From an uncultured virus (IMG/VR IMGVR_UViG_3300042445_002563) (lineage: Duplodnaviria; Heunggongvirae; Uroviricota; Caudoviricetes): a stretch of DNA of 64,000 nucleotides. Where the stretch lies: the IMG/VR virus record IMGVR_UViG_3300042445_002563, one strand, 5' to 3'. The position numbers and the translations under genes are program-made. The notes beneath the pieces were generated by a model, which saw nothing but the letters and a program-made list of their open reading frames with translations, did not search any database and was not told the origin of the DNA. Below, one piece after another: positions 11,448-61,899 of the stretch. Numbering within the stretch: position 1 is the stretch's first letter; each line of letters begins with the position of its first letter.

Positions 11448-12335
11448 ATGAAGAAATATGCTTTAGTAATGGCCCTAGCATTGGCCGCATCCCTGGCGCA
11501 AGCCGACGTTGCTGTGTACGGTAAAGTACGCCAGTATTTGAATACCGACGCTGTTGGCACTGCCAGCGGTGTTACTGCGTTGACAAATGATACCAGTCGA
11601 ATTGGTTTCCGTGCCAGTGAAAAGTTGGCCAATGGTTTCACCGCTGCTGCTGTTGTTGAAACCAGCGTGTTGGCCGATGCTCCGGGTGCTACAAGCCTGG
11701 GCGATCGCGAAAGCACAATTGGCTTGTCCAACAAAATGATTGGCGTGCGTATGGGTCGTGCATCACATGCATATGATTCTGTAATTGGTGCATTTAGCCC
11801 TGTGAATGATTTTGGTGCCAGCACCGGAACAACTCACACTCAGCCCACAAGCCGCATTCAGAATGCTGTGTTTGGTGCTGTGAACGTGGGACCTGCTGCT
11901 GTTCGTTACGATCGTGGATTGTCCGAAGTTGCTGGCACTGATGACGTGCAAGCTACCAGTGTTGCTGCCACTTTTGGACCAGTTGCGGTTGGTGCTGCTC
12001 GCCACATCGGTTCTGGTAGTGACTACAACTCTGTTGGTGCTAGCTACAATGCAGGCATTGCCACTGTGTACGGATTGTGGAGCGAGCAAAAAACTGCTGG
12101 TGCCACTGTCAACACTGGCAAGAGTGTAGGCGTTGCTGTTCCTGTAGCAGGAACTCCTGTCACAGTAAAAGGTTCGTATGGTCTCAACACCGCTGACACC
12201 AAGAGCTACAACGTGCAGACCACTTATGCATTCAGCAAAACAACATCTGCTCATGCTGTGTTCCGCAAGGACAATGCAGTTCTTGCAGCCAACGACCGCC
12301 AGCAATTTGGTGTTGGTTTAGAATACAATTTCTAA
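11448..12335 (+). CDS. Gram-negative general-diffusion porin (betaproteobacterial type)
   Basis: Signal peptide ending AQA, DVAVYGKV, SRIGFRASEKLANG, amphipathic beta strands, C-terminal GLEYNF; AAGGAG RBS. Confidence 0.9.
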   Translation: MKKYALVMALALAASLAQADVAVYGKVRQYLNTDAVGTASGVTALTNDTSRIGFRASEKLANGFTAAAVVETSVLADAPGATSLGDRESTIGLSNKMIGVRMGRASHAYDSVIGAFSPVNDFGASTGTTHTQPTSRIQNAVFGAVNVGPAAVRYDRGLSEVAGTDDVQATSVAATFGPVAVGAARHIGSGSDYNSVGASYNAGIATVYGLWSEQKTAGATVNTGKSVGVAVPVAGTPVTVKGSYGLNTADTKSYNVQTTYAFSKTTSAHAVFRKDNAVLAANDRQQFGVGLEYNF

Positions 12336-12342
12336 ACCCAAA

Positions 12343-12404
12343 GTACTACTGTAAAAGTAGTACCTTTTTGTAACAAAACCCTGCCCTGTGCAGGGTTTTC
12401 TTTT
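12343..12404 (+). terminator. Two tandem hairpins with T tracts after the porin gene
   Basis: GTACTACT-gtaaa-AGTAGTAC (12343-12363) then CTTTTT; AAAACCCTGC-cctgt-GCAGGGTTTT (12375-12399) then CTTTT. Confidence 0.8.
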
Positions 12405-12406
12405 GG

Positions 12407-12460
12407 TTGACCATTAATGCCCAATTGGCTATAATACACACATAAACAGCAAAAAGGAGC
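12407..12460 (+). promoter_or_regulatory. Early promoter cassette, copy 1
   Basis: TTGACC 12407, N17, TATAAT 12430, ACACACATAAACAGCAAAAAGGAG. Confidence 0.9.
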
Positions 12461-12464
12461 CAGA

Positions 12465-12794
12465 ATGCAAGCAACAGAATTGGACACAAAAACAGCGCCA
12501 TTTGCCTGGGTTGCGGCCAGAGATGCGGCCATGAAAAGTTATGTCGCTAGCACTCTTTACACAGAGTCTCAAAAAGTTCGGGCCGAGCGTATGAAGTTGG
12601 GCCTTGAATTGGTGTACTCCTTCAAGCAAACCTACATCACTTACCGTAAAAAATTCATCACAATTAAGTTAGAACAAGCCCGTGTCAAAGACCGTAAAAC
12701 TCTAGCTCTTTTAGAGCAAGATTATACAGTTGAGGGCAGTATTACTAAAGTAGTAACAGATCAGGGTGTGACTTATCGTATTTTACGAGGTTGA
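12465..12794 (+). CDS. Hypothetical early protein
   Basis: Has its own promoter and AGGAG RBS. Confidence 0.75.
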   Translation: MQATELDTKTAPFAWVAARDAAMKSYVASTLYTESQKVRAERMKLGLELVYSFKQTYITYRKKFITIKLEQARVKDRKTLALLEQDYTVEGSITKVVTDQGVTYRILRG

Positions 12795-12844
12795 CTCAAA
12801 ATGCCCAATTGGCTATAATTAACGCTTAAACAGCAAACAGGAGA
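12791..12844 (+). promoter_or_regulatory. Early promoter cassette, copy 2
   Basis: TTGACT 12791, N17, TATAAT 12814, TAACGCTTAAACAGCAAACAGGAG. Confidence 0.9.
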
Positions 12845-12849
12845 TTGAA

Positions 12850-13041
12850 ATGGACTACGCTAAACAACTGGAAATTGTCACCAACTGGGGTCGGGGCCAC
12901 AACATCCAGGGCGGCATGATGAAAACTCTGCAGGCCATGCAGGCATGTGGGTCAGACGAACTGCATCGCGATGAGCGTCAAGCATCGCGGTTGTTGATGG
13001 ATCACTTTCAACAGTTGTTTGCCCGTGTGCAAAACGGTTGA
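12850..13041 (+). CDS. Hypothetical early protein
   Basis: Cassette promoter and RBS upstream. Confidence 0.7.
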   Translation: MDYAKQLEIVTNWGRGHNIQGGMMKTLQAMQACGSDELHRDERQASRLLMDHFQQLFARVQNG

Positions 13042-13090
13042 CCATTAATGCCCATTCTGCTATAATTAACACTTAAACAGCAACAAGGAG
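13038..13090 (+). promoter_or_regulatory. Early promoter cassette, copy 3
   Basis: TTGACC 13038, N17, TATAAT 13061, TAACACTTAAACAGCAACAAGGAG. Confidence 0.9.
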
Positions 13091-13096
13091 AGCAGC

Positions 13097-13318
13097 ATGG
13101 GCTACAAGGTACTAGCAGACAAGACAGAAATGGACCAGATGCGCACCCGGTACAGTCCACGCAAGGGCTTGGAAGGTCCATTCAACTTCTCAGGCCGAGT
13201 GTTGTATTATGACAACAAAGAGGGCGCCTACTACGATCCTACCACAGACTTCTATGTGGAGCAGGCGGAAATGGATCTGATCCATGCACGATTGATGACT
13301 GTTTTGAGCAAGGTGTAG
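13097..13318 (+). CDS. Hypothetical early protein
   Basis: GLEGPF...LYYD.KEG.YYDP.TD.Y pattern; cassette upstream. Confidence 0.75.
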   Translation: MGYKVLADKTEMDQMRTRYSPRKGLEGPFNFSGRVLYYDNKEGAYYDPTTDFYVEQAEMDLIHARLMTVLSKV

Positions 13319-13326
13319 TGTTTTTG

Positions 13327-13406
13327 TGTTGCAAAAAAGCAACACTCAAACGGTTGACCCTTAATCACCAAACTGCTATAATTAACACTTAAACAGCAAA
13401 CAGGAG
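13327..13406 (+). promoter_or_regulatory. Early promoter cassette, copy 4, with upstream palindrome
   Basis: TGTTGC-N6-GCAACA 13327-13344; TTGACC 13354, N17, TATAAT 13377, TAACACTTAAACAGCAAACAGGAG. Confidence 0.9.
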
Positions 13407-13413
13407 CCAGCAA

Positions 13414-13656
13414 ATGATCAAGCAATTTGTCCAAGTTAGTGCCCACAGAGACAGCAACAATTTTGCACATTGCAGTAACCTGAGCCTGATGGCTGATCGC
13501 GATATGAGTGCCCTGCAAGCCCATCGCTACCTGCAGGTCATGGCCGATGACTATGCCCAGCGCGGATACACCGTTGAGTGGATTCGTGAGGACTGGGATG
13601 CGGCCTACGAAGAAATGTACGGTGACCTGTTTGAGTCCCAGGTCGTGTTTAACTGA
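13414..13656 (+). CDS. Hypothetical early protein
   Basis: Cassette upstream. Confidence 0.7.
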   Translation: MIKQFVQVSAHRDSNNFAHCSNLSLMADRDMSALQAHRYLQVMADDYAQRGYTVEWIREDWDAAYEEMYGDLFESQVVFN

Positions 13657-13671
13657 AACAGGAGTTGACAA

Positions 13672-13875
13672 ATGTATAACTTAATTCTGGTGCTGGCCAC
13701 AGGTGTTACCACTGTTGGTAATTACGCAAATCTCAATTCTTGTCAAGCAGAGCTGGCACAATTTCAAAAACAAAATGTCACAGCGGCTTGCGTACAGCAA
13801 CCCAGCCCTGAACAAAGCATGGCACAAGCCCAGGCCATAATGAAGAATTTTATGAAAATCATGGAGCAAAAATAA
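13672..13875 (+). CDS. Hypothetical small exported protein
   Basis: AGGAG RBS, hydrophobic N-terminus, two Cys. Confidence 0.65.
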   Translation: MYNLILVLATGVTTVGNYANLNSCQAELAQFQKQNVTAACVQQPSPEQSMAQAQAIMKNFMKIMEQK

Positions 13876-13922
13876 CAACAATGTTGTTATTCTGGTATAA
13901 TACACACATAGACAGCAAGGAG
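13871..13922 (+). promoter_or_regulatory. Variant cassette: extended -10 promoter, with a palindrome in place of the -35 box
   Basis: AATAACAAC-aat-GTTGTTATT 13871-13891; TGgTATAAT 13893-13901; ACACACATAGACAGCAAGGAG leader like copy 1. Confidence 0.75.
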
Positions 13923-13927
13923 TACAA

Positions 13928-14173
13928 ATGATTGATCTAGCTCAAGAATACACAGTGGAGCACAACGGACGCTCTTACACATTCAAGCATGGTGATCCGT
14001 TTGATCGCGGCATGTCAGACAGCTACTACGGTCGTATCCGTGGTCCACACCGGGGTGGTGTTGGCGGCACCAGCGGTCTTCGTAACACAGACCTCTCTCT
14101 GCAAGAGATCGCAGACTACGGTGCAGGCTACAACTACAACGAGCACAGTGGCGAGAAAAAGAGCTGGGATTGA
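13928..14173 (+). CDS. Hypothetical early protein
   Basis: HGDPFDRG.SDSYYGR...PH...Y.AGY pattern; RBS. Confidence 0.75.
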   Translation: MIDLAQEYTVEHNGRSYTFKHGDPFDRGMSDSYYGRIRGPHRGGVGGTSGLRNTDLSLQEIADYGAGYNYNEHSGEKKSWD

Positions 14174-14222
14174 CCTTTATTCGCAGTTGTGCTATAATTA
14201 ATACTTAAACAGCAACAGGGAG
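14170..14222 (+). promoter_or_regulatory. Early promoter cassette, copy 6
   Basis: TTGACC 14170, N17, TATAAT 14193, TAATACTTAAACAGCAACAGGGAG. Confidence 0.9.
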
Positions 14223-14228
14223 TCCAAA

Positions 14229-14432
14229 ATGGGTTTTGAAACAGTGATTCTTGACAAGGTTAATACTGTTCTTAAATCAGACAATCAAGCCAGTTTCTTT
14301 TGCGGCACATTGAGCGTGATTTGCAACGAAGCAGAAGCTCGCAAAATCTATCACCGACTCCGTAAAGATCAATACAAGGTCCAAGTCAGTCTGGATGGAT
14401 CTTACGGTTACAACTTTGATTTTGTTGCTTAA
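14229..14432 (+). CDS. Hypothetical early protein
   Basis: Cassette upstream. Confidence 0.7.
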   Translation: MGFETVILDKVNTVLKSDNQASFFCGTLSVICNEAEARKIYHRLRKDQYKVQVSLDGSYGYNFDFVA

Positions 14433-14507
14433 ACGCAACACCGGGTTAGTTGACTAATAATCACCATTCTGCTATAATTAATACTTAAACAACGCACACC
14501 AAAGGAG
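14423..14507 (+). promoter_or_regulatory. Early promoter cassette, copy 7, with upstream palindrome
   Basis: TGTTGC-N6-GCAACA 14423-14440; TTGACT 14450, N17, TATAAT 14473, TAATACTTAAACAAC...AAAGGAG. Confidence 0.9.
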
Positions 14508-14513
14508 CCAACC

Positions 14514-15536
14514 ATGAGTGCAATTCGTATCGTTCGCGGAGAGTATCGTAAACGTCCCGTAGCTGATCAAGTGTTCAGTCTTGTGTCGGGCTTTCAGTCC
14601 GGTGCCAAAGGCAACTTTGTGACTGTAAAAAACGACGGCAATTTTCCTAACTGTCCTGATACGATCCGTATCCGTGTTGACAACATTTCTGATATTGAGT
14701 ATACTAACGGCATGACAGACACAACCACCAACGCTGCCAAGGCAGTGGCTGCACCAGCAGAAACAGAAGAACAAGCAATTGAGCGCATTCGTGAGCGTTT
14801 TGACATCCTGCACGAAATGACCAAGGCAGCAGTTACAGGTGACATTCGTGCCATGATTGTATCAGGTCCTCCGGGCGTGGGCAAGAGCTTTGGCGTGGAG
14901 CAAGAGATTGAAAAAGCCACCATGTTTGACAAGCTGGCAGGCAAGCGCCTTCGTGCAGAAGTTGTCAAGGGTGCTGCTACTCCCATTGGCCTGTACCAGA
15001 CTCTGTACAAGTATTCGGACGAAAATTGCGTAGTGGTGTTTGACGACTGTGACAGCATCTTGCTGGACGATGTGAGCTTGAACCTGCTGAAGGGTGCCCT
15101 GGACTCAGGCAAGAAGCGCAAGATTTCGTGGCTATCAGAAAGCAGCAGCCTGCGCCGCGAAGGCATTCCAGACAGCTTTGAATTCAAAGGCAGTGCCATC
15201 TTTATCACAAACTTGAAGTTTGACAAGATGAAGAGCCAGAAACTGCGGGACCACCTGGATGCATTGCAAAGTCGATGCCACTACCTGGACCTGACTCTGG
15301 ATACCATGCATGACAAGATTCTGCGTATCAAGCAAATTGCCAAAGATGGCGTGTTGTTTGCAGACTATGATTTTGAACCCGAAGTTCAGGACGAGATCAT
15401 TGCGTTCATGGACGCCAATCAGAATCGTCTGCGTGAAATGAGTCTGCGTATGGCAATTAAAATTGCAGACCTGCGCCGGATGAGCATGCTGAACTGGAAG
15501 CGTCTAGCAGAAACAACTTGCATGAAGGTGGCTTAA
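14514..15536 (+). CDS. AAA+ family ATPase with N-terminal extension
   Basis: Walker A GPPGVGKS, Walker B VVVFDD, sensor FITN and ALQSR. Confidence 0.85.
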   Translation: MSAIRIVRGEYRKRPVADQVFSLVSGFQSGAKGNFVTVKNDGNFPNCPDTIRIRVDNISDIEYTNGMTDTTTNAAKAVAAPAETEEQAIERIRERFDILHEMTKAAVTGDIRAMIVSGPPGVGKSFGVEQEIEKATMFDKLAGKRLRAEVVKGAATPIGLYQTLYKYSDENCVVVFDDCDSILLDDVSLNLLKGALDSGKKRKISWLSESSSLRREGIPDSFEFKGSAIFITNLKFDKMKSQKLRDHLDALQSRCHYLDLTLDTMHDKILRIKQIAKDGVLFADYDFEPEVQDEIIAFMDANQNRLREMSLRMAIKIADLRRMSMLNWKRLAETTCMKVA

Positions 15537-34020: not shown

Positions 34021-34049
34021 TTGACATTTGTCGTTAAATACCTTATAAT
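34021..34049 (+). promoter_or_regulatory. Perfect sigma70 promoter with an embedded TAAATA, upstream of iscU
   Basis: TTGACA 34021, N17, TATAAT 34044; TAAATA 34035-34040. Confidence 0.85.
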
Positions 34050-41168: not shown

Positions 41169-41678
41169 ATGAAAATAAATGAACTGTTAGAAAGTGCAGA
41201 TGACATAGAGTTGAAGGCAAAAACTCTTGCTGTTGATGCACACAAGAACCAAAAATACGGTGTACACCCTTATGCCACCCATTTGGCGGATGTTGTTGCC
41301 CGTGTTAAAACAATTACACAAGACCCAGAAATAATTGCTGCTGCTTGGTTGCATGATATAGTGGAAGATACAGATGTCACATTGGAACAAATCAAACAAC
41401 AATTTGGTGATAATGTTGCCAATATAGTTTGGGCAGTAACAGGCCGCGGAGAGAACCGAAAAGAAAAAATGGCAAATGCCATTGCTAAGATTGCTCAAAC
41501 TCCAGGAAGTGAATTGGTAAAGAGTGCAGACCGATTGAGCAATGTTTCTGCCAGTTTACCAAGTGGTTTAGCAAACAATCCAAAAAAACTTAAAATGTAC
41601 CGAGATGAACACAAGGATTTGAGTCCAGTCTTGGGTAACAATGCATTGGCCCTAGAGCTAGTGGATTTATTCAAATAA
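41169..41678 (+). CDS. RelA/SpoT-type HD hydrolase (small alarmone hydrolase-like)
   Basis: AH..Q...PY..H, AAWLHDIVEDT and VK.ADRL.N. Confidence 0.85.
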   Translation: MKINELLESADDIELKAKTLAVDAHKNQKYGVHPYATHLADVVARVKTITQDPEIIAAAWLHDIVEDTDVTLEQIKQQFGDNVANIVWAVTGRGENRKEKMANAIAKIAQTPGSELVKSADRLSNVSASLPSGLANNPKKLKMYRDEHKDLSPVLGNNALALELVDLFK

Positions 41679-50622: not shown

Positions 50623-50824
50623 AACAACAGTATCTAAAATCAGCGACAAGCTGATCAAGATAAATGAATCATACACTGTGTATCGTTACGACAACGGCTT
50701 CATGGTAGAAGCAGGTGGGCGCAACAAAAAAGGCGACTACGTCACTGCCAAGATCCTGTGCAACACACTGGATGAGGTGCTGATTCTTGCAAAAGAAGCT
50801 GGCGAGATGGACTTGGATATTTAA
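50612..50824 (+). CDS. Hypothetical protein
   Basis: Probable start MATKT after GGAG; YDNGFMVE. Confidence 0.65.
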   Translation: MATKTTVSKISDKLIKINESYTVYRYDNGFMVEAGGRNKKGDYVTAKILCNTLDEVLILAKEAGEMDLDI

Positions 50825-50834
50825 GGAAACTACC

Positions 50835-51356
50835 ATGACACAGACTATACCAAATGTAACCTTTGCCTTTAGACAAGGCGACGAAGCACCTGAGGAAGGT
50901 GGATGCCCCATAGGCGGCGAGTTTGTTTTTAAAACAACCAATGACTTGTTTGCCAACAAACGAGTGGTGGTGTTTAGCCTGCCAGGCGCATTCACACCCA
51001 CTTGCAGCACCTATCAATTGCCGGGCTTTGAAGAACAGTACAATGACTTCCGAGCAAAAGGTATCGATGAAATTTATTGTGTCAGCGTGAATGATGCCTT
51101 TGTCATGAACGAATGGGCCAGAGCATTAAACATCAAGAATGTTCGAGTCATCCCCGACGGTGGTTACAACTTCACACGAGGCATGGGCATGTTGATTGAC
51201 ATGAGTCACATTGGCTTTGGCTGGCGCAGTCGTCGTTATGCGGCTGTGATCAACAACGGTCTAGTGGAACACATGTTTGTGGAACCAGAATCCAGCGCAG
51301 CTGATCCTGATCCCTACAGTGTTTCCAGTCCTGAAAACGTAATGAAACACCTGTAA
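50835..51356 (+). CDS. Peroxiredoxin (Prx5-like)
   Basis: FSLPGAFTPTCS, SVNDAFVM and RSRRYA; AAGGA RBS before ATG 50835. Confidence 0.92.
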   Translation: MTQTIPNVTFAFRQGDEAPEEGGCPIGGEFVFKTTNDLFANKRVVVFSLPGAFTPTCSTYQLPGFEEQYNDFRAKGIDEIYCVSVNDAFVMNEWARALNIKNVRVIPDGGYNFTRGMGMLIDMSHIGFGWRSRRYAAVINNGLVEHMFVEPESSAADPDPYSVSSPENVMKHL

Positions 51357-51366
51357 GGAGAACAGC

Positions 51367-52047
51367 ATGGCCATCTGGAAACTATCACCACAGCATAAAA
51401 AATCAGCAGTAGAAAAAATGTTTTTCTACAATGGCAGCAAAGCTATCGTTGTTGAACAAGGCTGGCGCTGGGGCACGTTCACAGTGGAATCAGATGAGCG
51501 TCCGCTTACCGATTCGGAACTGGTAAATGAAGACGGCTATGAACTTGGTTGCATTGACAACGACGAGTCATGGGAACTGTCTGAAATGACCGACGGTTGT
51601 TGGCTAGATATTGACGCATTGCGCGATGCCACCGAAGAAGATGTGACAGCATTTGAACAGGCCTGGGAACAAGATGGCTATGACGGCGTAGAAGAACTGG
51701 GCTGGAGCAATGACGATACAGAATACTACTACCTCGGTCCTTTGGAATTGACCAACGAAGACACTGGTCAAGTATTTCTGGGTGATGCTGTTGAGCCTCA
51801 AGCTCAAACCGAACAACAGTTGATAGCAGAGTTGGACCAGCTTATTGCAACCATGCCAGAGCCAGAAGAACCTGCTGTCACAGACTGGTTCCCAATCACA
51901 GTCAATCCTGCACATGTTGGCAGTTATCAAATAACTGAGACCAAATATCCCAATTGGCCGTTTCCGCAACATGCTACCTGGGATGGCAAATCCTGGAGTG
52001 AATCGGACATTGTGTCCTGGCGTGGCCTGGCAAACAAGCCCGAATAA
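51367..52047 (+). CDS. Acidic hypothetical protein
   Basis: AAGGAG RBS; C-terminal W.P....P..G.Y...W..WRGL module. Confidence 0.7.
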   Translation: MAIWKLSPQHKKSAVEKMFFYNGSKAIVVEQGWRWGTFTVESDERPLTDSELVNEDGYELGCIDNDESWELSEMTDGCWLDIDALRDATEEDVTAFEQAWEQDGYDGVEELGWSNDDTEYYYLGPLELTNEDTGQVFLGDAVEPQAQTEQQLIAELDQLIATMPEPEEPAVTDWFPITVNPAHVGSYQITETKYPNWPFPQHATWDGKSWSESDIVSWRGLANKPE

Positions 52048-52051
52048 TAAG

Positions 52052-52080
52052 TTGACAACATGTCACATGATCTGTATAAT
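52052..52080 (+). promoter_or_regulatory. Perfect consensus sigma70 promoter
   Basis: TTGACA 52052-52057, N17, TATAAT 52075-52080. Confidence 0.9.
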
Positions 52081-52085
52081 TACTA

Positions 52086-52342
52086 TGCATGATCAAGGAA
52101 ATGGTGCTGTTCAATAGTGCGGCGGGGGTCCTAGGCCCGCTGCTACTGTGGCATGTGAACGTTAGTCGCATAGGTTGAGACACTGTCCTTGAGTCAAATC
52201 AAAACCTGGTTGGTAGCCAGGGGTATGCCATAAAAGGAATAAAACAGTGAAAGGATATGTATATGTCTGTTGAAATTGGGGCCGCTGCGTTGAGCATGTC
52301 CGAGTCACTCAGCTCTCTTGAATCAACGCCCTTGGTCATGCA
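52086..52342 (+). ncRNA. Putative structured RNA / cis-regulatory leader of unknown class
   Basis: 13-bp closing stem 52086-52098/52330-52342 begins at the predicted +1, with further long-range pairing and several internal hairpins (found by eye). Confidence 0.6.
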
Positions 52343-52574
52343 CCGTATTTGGTTTGATATCGACAGTACCGACGTCTGGTATTCAATCCAGCGTGAAGCA
52401 AAAAAACTCTATGGCCGCAACTGGAAAAGTCAATCTCGAGTCAGGCGCAAACTAGAAAACATCTGGGGCCATCAAGTGACCCATCCAGTTTGGTTTGATG
52501 TGCCCGATCAGTCATTTGCATCCTGGATCTCGGTAAAGTACGCTGTGACCGCCAAGCTAGGTCCCAATAAATAA
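52263..52574 (+). CDS. Hypothetical protein (start 52263 or 52338)
   Basis: AAGGA 52251-52255 lies 7 nt before ATG 52263; HRIWF...VWFDVPD..FASWI.VKY. Confidence 0.6.
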   Translation: MSVEIGAAALSMSESLSSLESTPLVMHRIWFDIDSTDVWYSIQREAKKLYGRNWKSQSRVRRKLENIWGHQVTHPVWFDVPDQSFASWISVKYAVTAKLGPNK

Positions 52575-52577
52575 TCT

Positions 52578-54032
52578 ATGTTCCTTAGTTATATCACCCT
52601 GGCAGTTGCATTAAGCCTGTCAGTTATTGCTGCCTACTACTCAATCATGGGTCTTGCGGCCATTTTTGCTGCGGCCGTGATACCTATTATTATCATGGGT
52701 TCTATTCTAGAACTGGGCAAGGTGGTTGTCACGCTGTGGTTGCACGAGTATTGGTCTCGCTGCCGACTACTGATGAAAATGTATCTGGTGCCTGCTGTGG
52801 CAGCCCTGATGCTGATCACCAGCATGGGTATTTTTGGTTTTCTTAGTAAAGCACACAGCGACCAGAGCCTGGTATCAGGTGATGTGCAGGCCAAGATCTC
52901 AGTGTATGATGAAAAAATTCGAACAGCCAAGGACAATATAGATGCAAACCGTAAGGCGCTTAAACAGATGGATGAGGCAGTCGACCAAGTTATGGGTCGA
53001 AGTGCAGATGAAAAAGGTGCCGATAAAGCCGTATCAATCCGCAGATCTCAAGCTAAAGAACGTGCTCGTTTACTATCCGAAATCTCCTCCGAGCAGAAAA
53101 CTATTGCTACAGTCAATGAGGCTCGTGCGCCTATTGCAGCAGAGGTCAGAAAGGTTGAGGCCGAAGTTGGCCCCATCAAGTACATAGCTGCACTGATTTA
53201 CAGTGATACCACCAATGTTAATATGCTAGAAGAAGCAGTGCGCTGGGTTATTATTTTGTTGGTCATTGTGTTTGACCCCTTGGCCATCATGATGCTGTTG
53301 GCGTCTACTGAAAGCCTAAGGTGGGAACGAAAGACACGTGAAGATCAAGCCGCTATGAGTATTGTTCCGCCTGACATAGTCACAAGATCGTTTACTCCAG
53401 AAGAAATTGCAGCATTGGATCAAAATGAATCTGAACCCAAGTATGACTCTGACGACGGACCGTTGACTGATGATCAGGTGCAACAGATTAAAAAAACAAC
53501 AGCAGAGCAACACCCGTATCTTGATCAGCCTTTTGTGCATTTTAAAAACCTTACACCCATACCAGCACCTGCAACTGTTAGGCCAGAAACAGATGTAGAT
53601 GAGCTTGATAATGAACAAGAACTGCCTTATGTGAAAGAAGCCATCAAACAGTGGAAATCAGTTAATCCTAATGACACCATCAAGAACCAACGACACCTGT
53701 TGTCTCGGGGAGAAATTGCTGAACTGCCATGGATGGCCTTGATTAAATCTTTGCCTGAATACCAAGCTGTACACAGCTTTGGCACACAGTTACCCAGGTC
53801 AGGCAACAAAGGCGACACCTACATTCGAACAGATCAAGTGCCTAATCGCTTGTTTAAACACAATGGCCACAACTGGATCGAGCTTGACAAAACCATCAGC
53901 GACAGTTATACTTACAACACTGCCTACATCGATTATCTCATCGACAAAATTGCCCGGGGGGAATACGACCCTGACTTGCTGAGCGACAGAGAGAGCGAAC
54001 AAGTTGCCCTACATTTACAAGAAAGACAATAA
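52578..54032 (+). CDS. Multi-pass membrane protein with coiled coil and C-terminal soluble domain
   Basis: Three N-terminal TM segments, ITSMGIFGFLSKAH, EVGPIKYIA and VFDPLA. Confidence 0.75.
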   Translation: MFLSYITLAVALSLSVIAAYYSIMGLAAIFAAAVIPIIIMGSILELGKVVVTLWLHEYWSRCRLLMKMYLVPAVAALMLITSMGIFGFLSKAHSDQSLVSGDVQAKISVYDEKIRTAKDNIDANRKALKQMDEAVDQVMGRSADEKGADKAVSIRRSQAKERARLLSEISSEQKTIATVNEARAPIAAEVRKVEAEVGPIKYIAALIYSDTTNVNMLEEAVRWVIILLVIVFDPLAIMMLLASTESLRWERKTREDQAAMSIVPPDIVTRSFTPEEIAALDQNESEPKYDSDDGPLTDDQVQQIKKTTAEQHPYLDQPFVHFKNLTPIPAPATVRPETDVDELDNEQELPYVKEAIKQWKSVNPNDTIKNQRHLLSRGEIAELPWMALIKSLPEYQAVHSFGTQLPRSGNKGDTYIRTDQVPNRLFKHNGHNWIELDKTISDSYTYNTAYIDYLIDKIARGEYDPDLLSDRESEQVALHLQERQ

Positions 54033-55238
54033 ATGAAAAATATCAAACCGATAGATACCTGTAATTTTTGCGGCAAACACAAAGACACTGTGACCAAGCT
54101 TATAGTAGGCGATTCAGTTGCTATTTGCAACGAGTGTGTGGATCTGTGTCAAACTCTCTTGGTAGATGACCCAGCAGAACTCAACAAACAAACCGCTACA
54201 CTGGATCCATTGGCCATTAAAGATCATTTAGACCAGTATGTGATTGGCCAAGATCAAGCCAAACAAGTGTTGAGCGTGGCAGTGGTCAATCACTACAAAC
54301 GGATCAACAATCAAGACCAAAATACTGAAATTGAAAAAGCCAACATTCTCATGCTTGGCCCCACAGGGTCAGGCAAAACACTCTTGGCTCGCACAGTGGC
54401 CCGTTATCTTGACGTGCCGTTTGTGATTGCTGATGCCACCAGCTTGACTGAAGCTGGTTATGTAGGCGACGATGTGGAAAGTCTAATCAGTCGCTTGTAT
54501 GCTGCTGCAGACTACAACGTAGACCGTTGCCAACGCGGCATTGTGTTTGTGGATGAAATTGACAAGATTGCTAGAAAAAGTGAAGGAACCAGTATCACAC
54601 GTGATGTGTCGGGCGAAGGTGTACAACAAGCCCTGCTCAAACTGGTGGAAGGCACTCGATGCCGAATTACTCCGCAAGGCGGGCGTAAACACCCGTCGGG
54701 GGAAACGGTAGAAATTGATACCACAAACATCTTGTTCATTGCAGGTGGTGCTTTTGTGGGCCTGGAAACTATTCTTAAAAATCGCATCAAAGGCAGCACC
54801 ATTGGCTTTGGTTCTAAACTGGCCACACAAGATGATGTTAATCTCATGAACCAGACCATGCCAGACGATCTGGTACGCTTTGGTCTTATTCCAGAGTTTG
54901 TGGGACGATTCCCCAGCTGGGTTGCACTGCAGGAACTGACCAAACAGGATCTGTTGCGTATTCTACAAGACGTCAAGCACAACTACATCAGTCAGTACCA
55001 TTGGTTGTTTGAGCGCGATGAAGTTGAACTCAATTTCTCCCCTGCTGCATTAGAATTGATTGCTGAACGTACTATTGCTAACAAAACAGGTGCCAGAGGT
55101 CTGCATTCAGAACTTGAACGAGTATTGTTACCACACATGTTTTACCTAGCAGCATATCGTCGCCAAGGCATCAAGTGCGTGGACATTGACGTAGATCTAG
55201 TAAACTCACCAGTAGAATTGAAACAAGTCAACGAGTAA
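54033..55238 (+). CDS. clpX: ClpX ATP-dependent protease ATPase subunit
   Basis: Zn-binding CNFC...CNEC, GPTGSGKT, EAGYVG, DEIDK, RDVSGEGVQQALLK, RKH, IGF and GARGL. Confidence 0.96.
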   Translation: MKNIKPIDTCNFCGKHKDTVTKLIVGDSVAICNECVDLCQTLLVDDPAELNKQTATLDPLAIKDHLDQYVIGQDQAKQVLSVAVVNHYKRINNQDQNTEIEKANILMLGPTGSGKTLLARTVARYLDVPFVIADATSLTEAGYVGDDVESLISRLYAAADYNVDRCQRGIVFVDEIDKIARKSEGTSITRDVSGEGVQQALLKLVEGTRCRITPQGGRKHPSGETVEIDTTNILFIAGGAFVGLETILKNRIKGSTIGFGSKLATQDDVNLMNQTMPDDLVRFGLIPEFVGRFPSWVALQELTKQDLLRILQDVKHNYISQYHWLFERDEVELNFSPAALELIAERTIANKTGARGLHSELERVLLPHMFYLAAYRRQGIKCVDIDVDLVNSPVELKQVNE

Positions 55239-61870: not shown

Positions 61871-61899
61871 TTGACATTATTCCAGATGTGTTGTATAAT
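61871..61899 (+). promoter_or_regulatory. Perfect sigma70 promoter, probably giving a leaderless uvsE mRNA
   Basis: TTGACA 61871, N17, TATAAT 61894; ATG at 61906. Confidence 0.85.

Follow-up and report, generated by a model that had tools for sequence, protein, structure and literature searches.

The stretch of DNA analysed here, 64,000 nt in length and referred to as the window, comes from a large phage genome that also encodes helicases, a ribonucleotide reductase, DNA ligase, ClpX, Hsp20 and ClpS, and likewise a Gram-negative porin and NifU (Pfam). Contigs of its relatives reach 364 kb, one of them with terminal repeats, and the porin and PGDYG genes suggest a host among the Proteobacteria. 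Host-like genes for the Gram-negative porin, an HD-domain protein (HD_4) and a peroxiredoxin were noted at 11448-12335, 41169-41678 and 50787-51356, and at 12400-14520 about six near-identical cassettes follow one another, each with a sigma70-like promoter, an A-rich leader that recurs from one to the next, and then an SD and a short ORF. This series of repeated promoter units resembles an early region for host takeover. Further along, a promoter is followed by a structured RNA, a small ORF that begins within this RNA, a membrane/coiled-coil gene and clpX (Table 1), with the Hsp20 and ClpS genes coming after clpX.

Table 1. Features of the RNA locus and its downstream genes (window coordinates)
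Feature	Position	Strand	Description
Sigma70-type promoter	52052..52080	+	TTGACA-17-TATAAT; 12/12 consensus match; predicted +1 at G52087
Structured RNA	52087..52341	+	255 nt; covariance model R1; family range 229-302 nt
P1, 5' strand	52087..52098	+	pairs with 52330-52341, closing the entire RNA
P2	52104..52169	+	local helix, 52104-52112 with 52157-52169, internal loop
P3	52114..52149	+	hairpin of variable length
Palindromic hexamer	52130..52135	+	CCUAGG in the 9-nt P3 loop; putative homodimer kissing site
Pseudoknot	52150..52229	+	GGCA 52150-52153 with UGCC 52226-52229
P4	52177..52317	+	GAGA 52177-52180 with UCUC 52314-52317, the latter inside the ORF
P5	52181..52249	+	bulged helix, 52181-52190 with 52234-52249
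P6	52191-52200	+	hairpin within P5
P7	52205-52221	+	hairpin within P5, conserved AAAA and GUA at flanks
SD, start codon and P8	52251..52268	+	SD AAGGA; AUG 52263; GGA 52253-52255 with codon 2 (52266-52268)
P9	52269..52313	+	hairpin made by codons 3-17
103-aa ORF	52263..52574	+	about 25 disordered RNA-encoded residues, then a small basic ferredoxin-like alpha/beta domain
Membrane/coiled-coil gene	52578-54032	+	constant downstream partner
clpX	54033-55238	+	Pfam; constant downstream partner

The promoter had been called perfect in a sequence-only reading of the window, all of whose quoted sequences and coordinates are present, and it is so at all 12 positions; three perfect sites occur in the 64 kb against 0.04 expected. 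The other two (34021-34049 and 61871-61899) lie one upstream of a NifU/IscU-like gene and the other upstream of a 348-aa ORF, which we take to resemble a UV-damage endonuclease. Homologous loci were retrieved by means of the downstream ORF (28 loci, plus the best 80 of 191, 201, 132 and 240). Across them the DNA upstream of the promoter is variable, and conservation runs from the promoter through codon 27. A covariance model of the RNA (R1) matched 41 of 48 loci, all 97 of the chosen loci and 81 of 91 further loci, giving 151 distinct full-length copies: 105 of type A (250-278 nt) and 46 others (229-302 nt), 42 of which belong to a long type B. A lax -10 element (TAnnnT, 4-9 nt before the first G) precedes 103 of the 105 type A copies and 45 of the 46 others, and a -35 element TTGA(C/T) precedes 95 and 15, respectively. 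The RNA thus appears to open an early transcript in this uncultured giant phage and its relatives, with a start of transcription that is predicted from these elements. Strong matches to R1 were single in each of five large records, and there is one in the window.

The fold was obtained from an alignment (A2) of 60 distinct copies that were aligned without reference to structure and then folded, which at first gave two-sided change in 32 of 56 pairs. The supported fold, spanning 52087-52341, comprises nine helices, three multi-helix junctions and one pseudoknot. On A2 it pairs 95.2% of cells, with two-sided change in 41 of 71 pairs (466 cells), figures that are biased in its favour as the structure was derived from A2 itself; 500 shuffles of A2 gave 85.8% paired, with 27 pairs and 126 cells changed on both sides, and none reached the real fold. 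Sliding the structure along A2 lowered the paired cells to 32-47%. Covariation was also scored over all pairs with a home-made G-test, not R-scape, on a 97-row model-fitted alignment with a tree-based null of 40 simulations: the top 13 of 33,411 pairs fall in the modelled fold, five of them exceeding the null maximum and the sixth having an E of 0.05. The compensatory changes among homologues that the sequence-only reading had proposed as a check are therefore present, in a corrected fold.

Within this fold P1 opens a junction holding P2 and P4; P2 encloses P3 and the GGCA strand of the pseudoknot, P4 encloses P5, P8 and P9, and P5 encloses P6, P7 and the UGCC strand. Many of the 56 positions conserved in at least 97% of the 97 rows lie in the junctions. 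The end-to-end helix foreseen by the earlier reading proved sound, being 99.4% paired in the 60 distinct homologues with two-sided change in six of its 12 pairs; the pair 52090/52338 is UA in 90 and GC in seven of 97 rows, and the AUG at 52338 becomes CUG in the other subtype with a matching change at the 5' end. Six of seven pairs in P2 show two-sided change on A2, and four P2 pairs rank in the top nine of the 33,411. P4, which closes the junction around the start codon, is 100% paired on A2 and contains the strongest covariation of all (52178/52316: AU 49, CG 37, UA 8, UG 3). P8 has only 3 bp but is 100% paired in the 60 copies, its pair 52255/52266 being AU in 75 and UA in 19 of 97, and P9 is at least 99.3% paired with two-sided change in seven of 14 pairs (A2). 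The pseudoknot is 100% paired in the 60 copies, with two-sided change in one pair and, among the 97, the variants AGCA/UGCU (5), GGCU/AGCC (3) and GACA/UGUC (1); in the long subtype the fourth of its pairs is often disrupted. For P5 an alignment-free test was made on 64 distinct strand pairs: strands pair with their own partners at -6.9 kcal/mol and with foreign ones at -4.7 +/- 0.2, and the best of 2000 permutations reached -5.4 kcal/mol.

Other parts of the sequence-only reading fared unevenly. Its local hairpin (52119-52125/52137-52143) and the CCUGG/CCAGG hairpin are supported on A2, and of its stem between 52148 and 52224 the GGCA/UGCC core stands. Four further helices (52104-52114/52318-52329, the alternative partner at 52282-52288, GUUGAG/CUCAGC and AACAG/CUGUU) together pair in 69.2% of cells, with two-sided change in four of 28 pairs, and are no better than shuffles (233 and 447 of 500). 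Because these helices equal their shuffles, the claim of bistability falls; the alternative helix named for it fails, and the conserved alternatives of 4-5 bp that a scan returned each have no or one two-sided change. Pairing of the SD to the 3' strand of P1 (AAGG/CCUU) and of the 5' end of the RNA to 52224-52228 were considered as switches and rejected for want of covariation, and CACUGU/ACAGUG was rejected as a second pseudoknot as it is nested within P4. The heavy base-pairing was borne out in part: z is -2.18 for the window, with four of 200 shuffles as good, and the homologues average -2.1 (25 of 97). A leaderless 29-codon leader peptide had also been suggested, but its AUG is present in 86 of 97 rows with an ORF of 6 to 62 codons, and it is not conserved.

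We conclude that the RNA is a real, uncatalogued structured family of uncultured giant phages. The covariance models of Rfam 15, among them those of manA, ARRPOF, OLE, ROOL, GOLLD, RNase P, 6S, SRP and the riboswitches, gave no match at gathering score over the whole window and none at E up to 10 over 51900-52700, and on 10 divergent loci they gave three weak matches, all below gathering score and none on the RNA. No match was found in 50,697 annotated phage records, and a literature search, mostly without subscription journals, yielded no account of this RNA. Fremin et al. 2023 (PMC10690425), in the parts accessible, give IMG/VR RNA candidates of 29-151 nt; the motif is absent from three of the supplementary files and six contig names are absent from a fourth, and a fragment of the 255-nt RNA may be among those candidates. 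In a collection of genome contigs two of 162 candidates were relatives, both from one assembled genome; these contigs are nearly identical to phage loci and hence probably mis-binned, so that they offer no evidence on the host. That the RNA could not be recognised as tRNA, tmRNA, RNase P or 6S RNA was upheld by Rfam and by ARAGORN, which found no tRNA or tmRNA gene; moreover, the supported fold has no T arm before the 3' strand of P1, and P2 closes locally before P4, contrary to RNase P RNA. There are presumably short motif likenesses to RNase P RNA. The terminal inverted repeat enclosing the RNA (P1, 12-13 bp) is a retron-like feature, but a retron msr-msd was rejected, as a PF00078 reverse transcriptase occurs in none of five records (one complete, two >90%) and the neighbours are the small ORF, the membrane gene and clpX; a Y RNA (Yrl/Yrn) was rejected likewise, with Ro60/TROVE (PF05731) in none of the five.

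The RNA contains codons 1-25 of the ORF, through the end of P1. None of the 105 type A copies has an in-frame stop over the RNA-encoded codons (72, 75, 78 or 84 nt in length), whereas column shuffling puts a stop in 15 of 66 rows and the other two frames have stops in 53 and 66 of the 66, kinship being ignored in these counts. Variation over the three codon positions in the overlap is flat (0.57, 0.45 and 0.57 bits), which together with the lack of stops argues that the frame is kept and that the letters serve the RNA. In 90 of 97 rows the P8 loop contains an in-frame AUG, accompanied in 88 by an SD and an open frame. In non-A lineages the SD and first AUG are gone, or a stop follows them, and the P8 helix persists; in 37 of the 46 non-A copies the nearest in-frame AUG lies on the 3' strand of P9, with 14 codons left to the end of P1. 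The start codon is therefore within paired structure in both subtypes despite its differing position. In type B the loop of P6 also pairs with the bulge of P5, forming an additional pseudoknot (41 of 42 copies parsed, with 39 distinct strand pairs: -9.7 vs -7.6 +/- 0.3). Type B loci such as L112:2420-2500, L163 and L180 also have a conserved GAGAUCUC palindrome in P9, and their extended P7 carries a conserved CCWCU stretch. The computed cost of opening the initiation region climbs with transcript growth from 4.3 to 8.1 kcal/mol in the window and from 4.9 to 7.1 kcal/mol in the family (22 copies), while 10 other starts in the window cost 2.4-16.9 (median 5.5) kcal/mol, all for secondary structure without the pseudoknot or tertiary contacts.

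A further feature of the RNA is the hexamer in the P3 loop. In the 86 best-aligned rows, 11 divergent rows being excluded, it is self-complementary in 77 and strictly so in 65, against 38 (at most 51) after column shuffling; the strict palindromes include CCCGGG, CCUAGG, ACCGGU, UCCGGA and ACUAGU. In 80 rows the central two bases are CG 50 times, UA 19, UG 10 and CA never, and the UA centre requires seven changes on the tree. Neighbouring bases cannot pair within one strand, which argues that this covariation reflects contact between copies; the accessible text of 10.1101/2024.12.08.627333 uses the same argument for bridges in OLE and GOLLD confirmed by cryo-EM. Within a 28-nt span over the P3 tip, 70 of 74 type A copies (26 expected) and 23 of 37 type B copies (11 expected, maximum 19) contain a strict palindrome, so that in type B the signal is weaker and not universal, and a few compact copies of the RNA have no P3 palindrome. 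These patterns suggest that the loop acts as a homodimer kissing site. Where type A copies have a longer P3 loop, most show a second palindrome (AUCGAU 22, AGAUCU 13 and others; n=74), as in the homologues of 52120-52140 in L040, L013 and L095, which could provide an additional kissing contact; the window copy has a single palindrome. The loop palindrome, the nested junction of P4, P5, P8 and P9 and the inclusion of the first 25 codons in the RNA all go beyond the earlier reading.

The 103-aa protein has conserved Trp residues and 13 K+R against 7 D+E. Its predicted structure has a mean pLDDT of 80, low before residue 28, and a fold search gave generic matches (best Z 6.8), with ACT, HMA and CutA equally good and ribosomal protein S6 among the weak ones (Z 5.3); matches in the Atlas are to viral clusters, below 0.9. 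Pfam assigned the ORF to no family, and it had no match in the 50,697 annotated phage records. The membrane gene is downstream in 94 of 96 RNA-bearing loci, the other two ending within 200 nt, and in seven of seven RNA-less loci. In cultured jumbo phages that share the membrane gene, other genes precede it and there is no match to the RNA model. In Ralstonia phage RsoM2USA an unannotated ORF seems to occupy the gap before gene 215 (L268:3455-3632) and is similar to ORF244 of XacN1; gene 215 and ORF243 we take to be GroES-like. A pattern search blind to the ORF returned 62 matches, 59 with the ORF and three cut by a contig end, and with a second pattern two of 10 matches were confirmed by the model, both with the ORF; no free-standing copy was found by these exact patterns, which reach close relatives only.

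Conversely, 17 loci have the ORF without the RNA, and R1 found nothing in five records with such ORFs (one >90% complete). On a quick tree of 96 non-redundant rows and three long-branch outgroups, whose root is unsure, the nine RNA-less rows retained nest inside RNA-bearing groups and need seven changes, of which strongly supported branches force six, so that loss of the RNA, with the genes kept, took place six times or more. Six of eight RNA-less loci inspected have a start codon 5-6 nt after the -10 box and are thus leaderless genes. At L313:2440-2520 an RNA-less ORF, coupled to an upstream stop codon, retains a remnant of the 3' end of the RNA, a snapshot of its loss. The conserved residues of the protein are retained in lineages without the RNA, and the repeated, clean loss implies that the protein needs neither the RNA nor the N-terminal extension.

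Six RNA sequencing runs, selected by this very stretch, hold 5-7% of its words, and four of them (X1, X3, X4 and X6) were examined at the level of contigs. In all four, contigs overlap the 255-nt RNA; one in X3 is identical over 154 nt, and one in X4 extends beyond its 3' end. Contig depth, which lacks strand and ends and can neither rank parts of a gene nor measure level, sums to 46 and 206 in the RNA bins against 5.3 in the next bin in X1 (other bins up to 78), to 580 and 193 against 2.4 in X6 (up to 53), to 12 and 29 against 2.7 in X4 (up to 108) and to 1.2 and 0.4 against 0 in X3. An excess of the RNA over the rest of the ORF is thus a lead from two of four runs (X1, X6), with none marked in X3 and X4. 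No conserved terminator follows P1, at least five T being found in 26 of 151 copies.

The data here support the fold, its in-frame overlap with the ORF, a palindrome that varies as if it paired, and a fixed position of the RNA. A role in cis is favoured by the fixed place, the paired SD and the kept frame, and a stable RNA by closure exactly at +1, the conserved junctions, the palindrome and the lead from contig depth. As a dual fate covers both kinds of evidence, our preferred reading, with a probability of about 0.4, is a transcript that is translated while nascent and then locked as a stable dimer. The host sigma70 polymerase would initiate at G52087, and the 5' domains of the RNA would fold before the rest. 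The ribosome-binding site would be exposed 50-75 nt ahead of the strands that close P9, P4 and P1, so that ribosomes could load on the nascent RNA, and translation of codons 1-25 would hold these helices open. In a transcript not caught by a ribosome early enough, P9, P4 and P1 would close, burying the SD and AUG in a four-helix junction; such a transcript would join a second copy through the P3 palindrome and persist as an untranslated dimer once the downstream part decays or terminates. The RNA would in this way limit expression of the gene that opens the clpX run and meanwhile supply abundant folded dimer. Consistent with this, the initiation region is paired in both subtypes, the frame is strictly kept, SD pairing covaries, the opening cost rises with transcript length, the palindrome statistics are as described, contigs occur in four of four runs, and patterns blind to the ORF return the RNA with it. 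A window of translation set by folding time has a precedent in the Levivirus maturation leader (the accessible part of PMC4615214). On the other hand, at 8.1 kcal/mol, where other starts have a median of 5.5, the calculated lock is a weak one, P8 has only 3 bp, the scan found no covarying alternative, transient or delaying helix, the RNA has been lost at least six times, there is no conserved terminator, and the depth excess holds in two of four runs; moreover, a hairpin is enough for repression, and 56 conserved positions and a dimer site suggest something more.

A close rival is a stand-alone 'ornate' RNA that would form a dimer or larger assembly and act in trans, be it as scaffold, decoy or sponge; the ORF overlap would then be genome compaction, with translation tolerated. 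P1 closing exactly at +1, helices that outlast the SD and first AUG in the divergent subtype, the extra pseudoknot of the long subtype and the depth excess in X1 and X6 (a lead only) would suit it, as would palindrome covariation resembling the OLE and GOLLD bridges seen by cryo-EM (10.1101/2024.12.08.627333, parts available); the RNA is, however, never found apart from the ORF, is single in five of five records and has no terminator, type A keeps frame and SD, the X4 contig passes the 3' end, and X3 and X4 lack a marked excess. A bolder proposal, unlikely though worth stating, is that of a new class of self-assembling phage RNA, pseudoknotted and of 230-300 nt, which dimerises or forms a larger particle by means of palindromic kissing loops, builds up during infection with a function of its own, and whose assembly state gates the use of the clpX-run mRNA; if true, this would be a concentration-sensing switch built from RNA alone. 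We consider improbable an orphan translational riboswitch or stress sensor in which a metabolite, an ion or heat opens or closes P8 and P9 and so tunes the protein-quality-control run: the 5' position, sequestered SD, many invariant junction bases, pseudoknot and nearby clpX, hsp20 and clpS genes invite it, as does the cyanophage candidate manA, which the available portion of PMC2864571 also places upstream of ibpA chaperone genes, but no covarying alternative fold and no Rfam riboswitch match were found. The RNA, besides, is always with the same gene. Metabolite switches usually spread across several genes of one pathway. Similarly improbable is an autogenous operator, in which the small basic protein with its ferredoxin-like fold would repress its own synthesis by binding the leader; its fold class is common to RNA-binding domains (S6 among the weak matches), it is basic with conserved Trp, and linkage is strict, yet the fold match is generic, conserved residues are kept where the RNA is missing, and 255-300 nt with a dimer site is presumably more than such operators need. 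As for the suggestion of the sequence-only reading, an uncatalogued phage RNA that closes over the start of the small ORF was confirmed, but the comparison with type I toxin mRNAs, in which 5'-3' fold-back acts as a lock, was not, and we regard this as very improbable: the 5' and 3' strands do pair, as does the SD, but the product is a soluble protein of 103 aa (highest 19-residue hydropathy 0.9), there is no conserved antisense promoter (promoter-like sites by consensus scan in 25 of 141 loci against 23 of 141 for a control stretch), the gene survives loss of the RNA, often leaderless, and the closing strand lies inside the ORF, in codons 23-26.

Few orphan RNAs of such complexity reach this size, and for several of them dimers or cages of unexplained purpose have lately come to light. 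The present family is compact and deeply sampled (151 variants, two subtypes and natural deletion lineages), and the small size of the RNA allows probing, cryo-EM and reporter assays that do not require the uncultured phage. With a predicted dimer site and a translation start on one molecule, a regulatory output of RNA self-assembly, if there is one, becomes directly testable.

Several known systems invite comparison. Type I toxin-antitoxin mRNAs (hok/sok and relatives) fold 5' to 3' over the initiation region, whereas the 255-nt RNA has no hydrophobic peptide and no conserved antisense unit, and its closing strand is in the ORF. In retroviruses the dimer initiation loop likewise has a palindromic hexamer, set in a hairpin of the 5' leader in which a start codon also lies, although sequence and organism are unrelated and a DNA phage excludes a role in genome packaging. 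In the leader of the Levivirus (MS2) maturation gene a final fold of several helices likewise hides the SD and confines translation to a folding window, but there, according to the accessible part of PMC4615214, an upstream sequence captures the SD and folding is slowed by a metastable hairpin; in the phage RNA the strands that close the structure lie farther downstream, within the coding sequence, a conserved metastable helix was not found, and the genome is DNA. OLE, ROOL, GOLLD and ARRPOF share a multi-junction fold with pseudoknots, ARRPOF being itself 255 nt and dimeric (PMC12990946, in part), and in OLE L9.3 and GOLLD L21a adjacent loop bases also covary by switching between palindromes (available text of 10.1101/2024.12.08.627333). 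They differ in that overlap with a translated start is not described for them in the portions of these sources available, and in that their oligomers have been demonstrated, while that of the 255-nt RNA is predicted. The manA RNA (RF01745) is another complex orphan RNA 5' of phage genes, some of them chaperone genes (PMC2864571, in part), and it forms closed oligomers via kissing loops (bioRxiv 10.64898/2026.07.01.735769, in part). As far as these partial sources go, manA is shorter than 200 nt, precedes varied genes and pairs loops of different stems (L5-L7', L8-L9'), whereas the present family has 229-302 nt, a single gene whose first codons are included, and a self-complementary loop. In function manA, an oligomerising 5' RNA of phages, comes closest, but it belongs to a different family.
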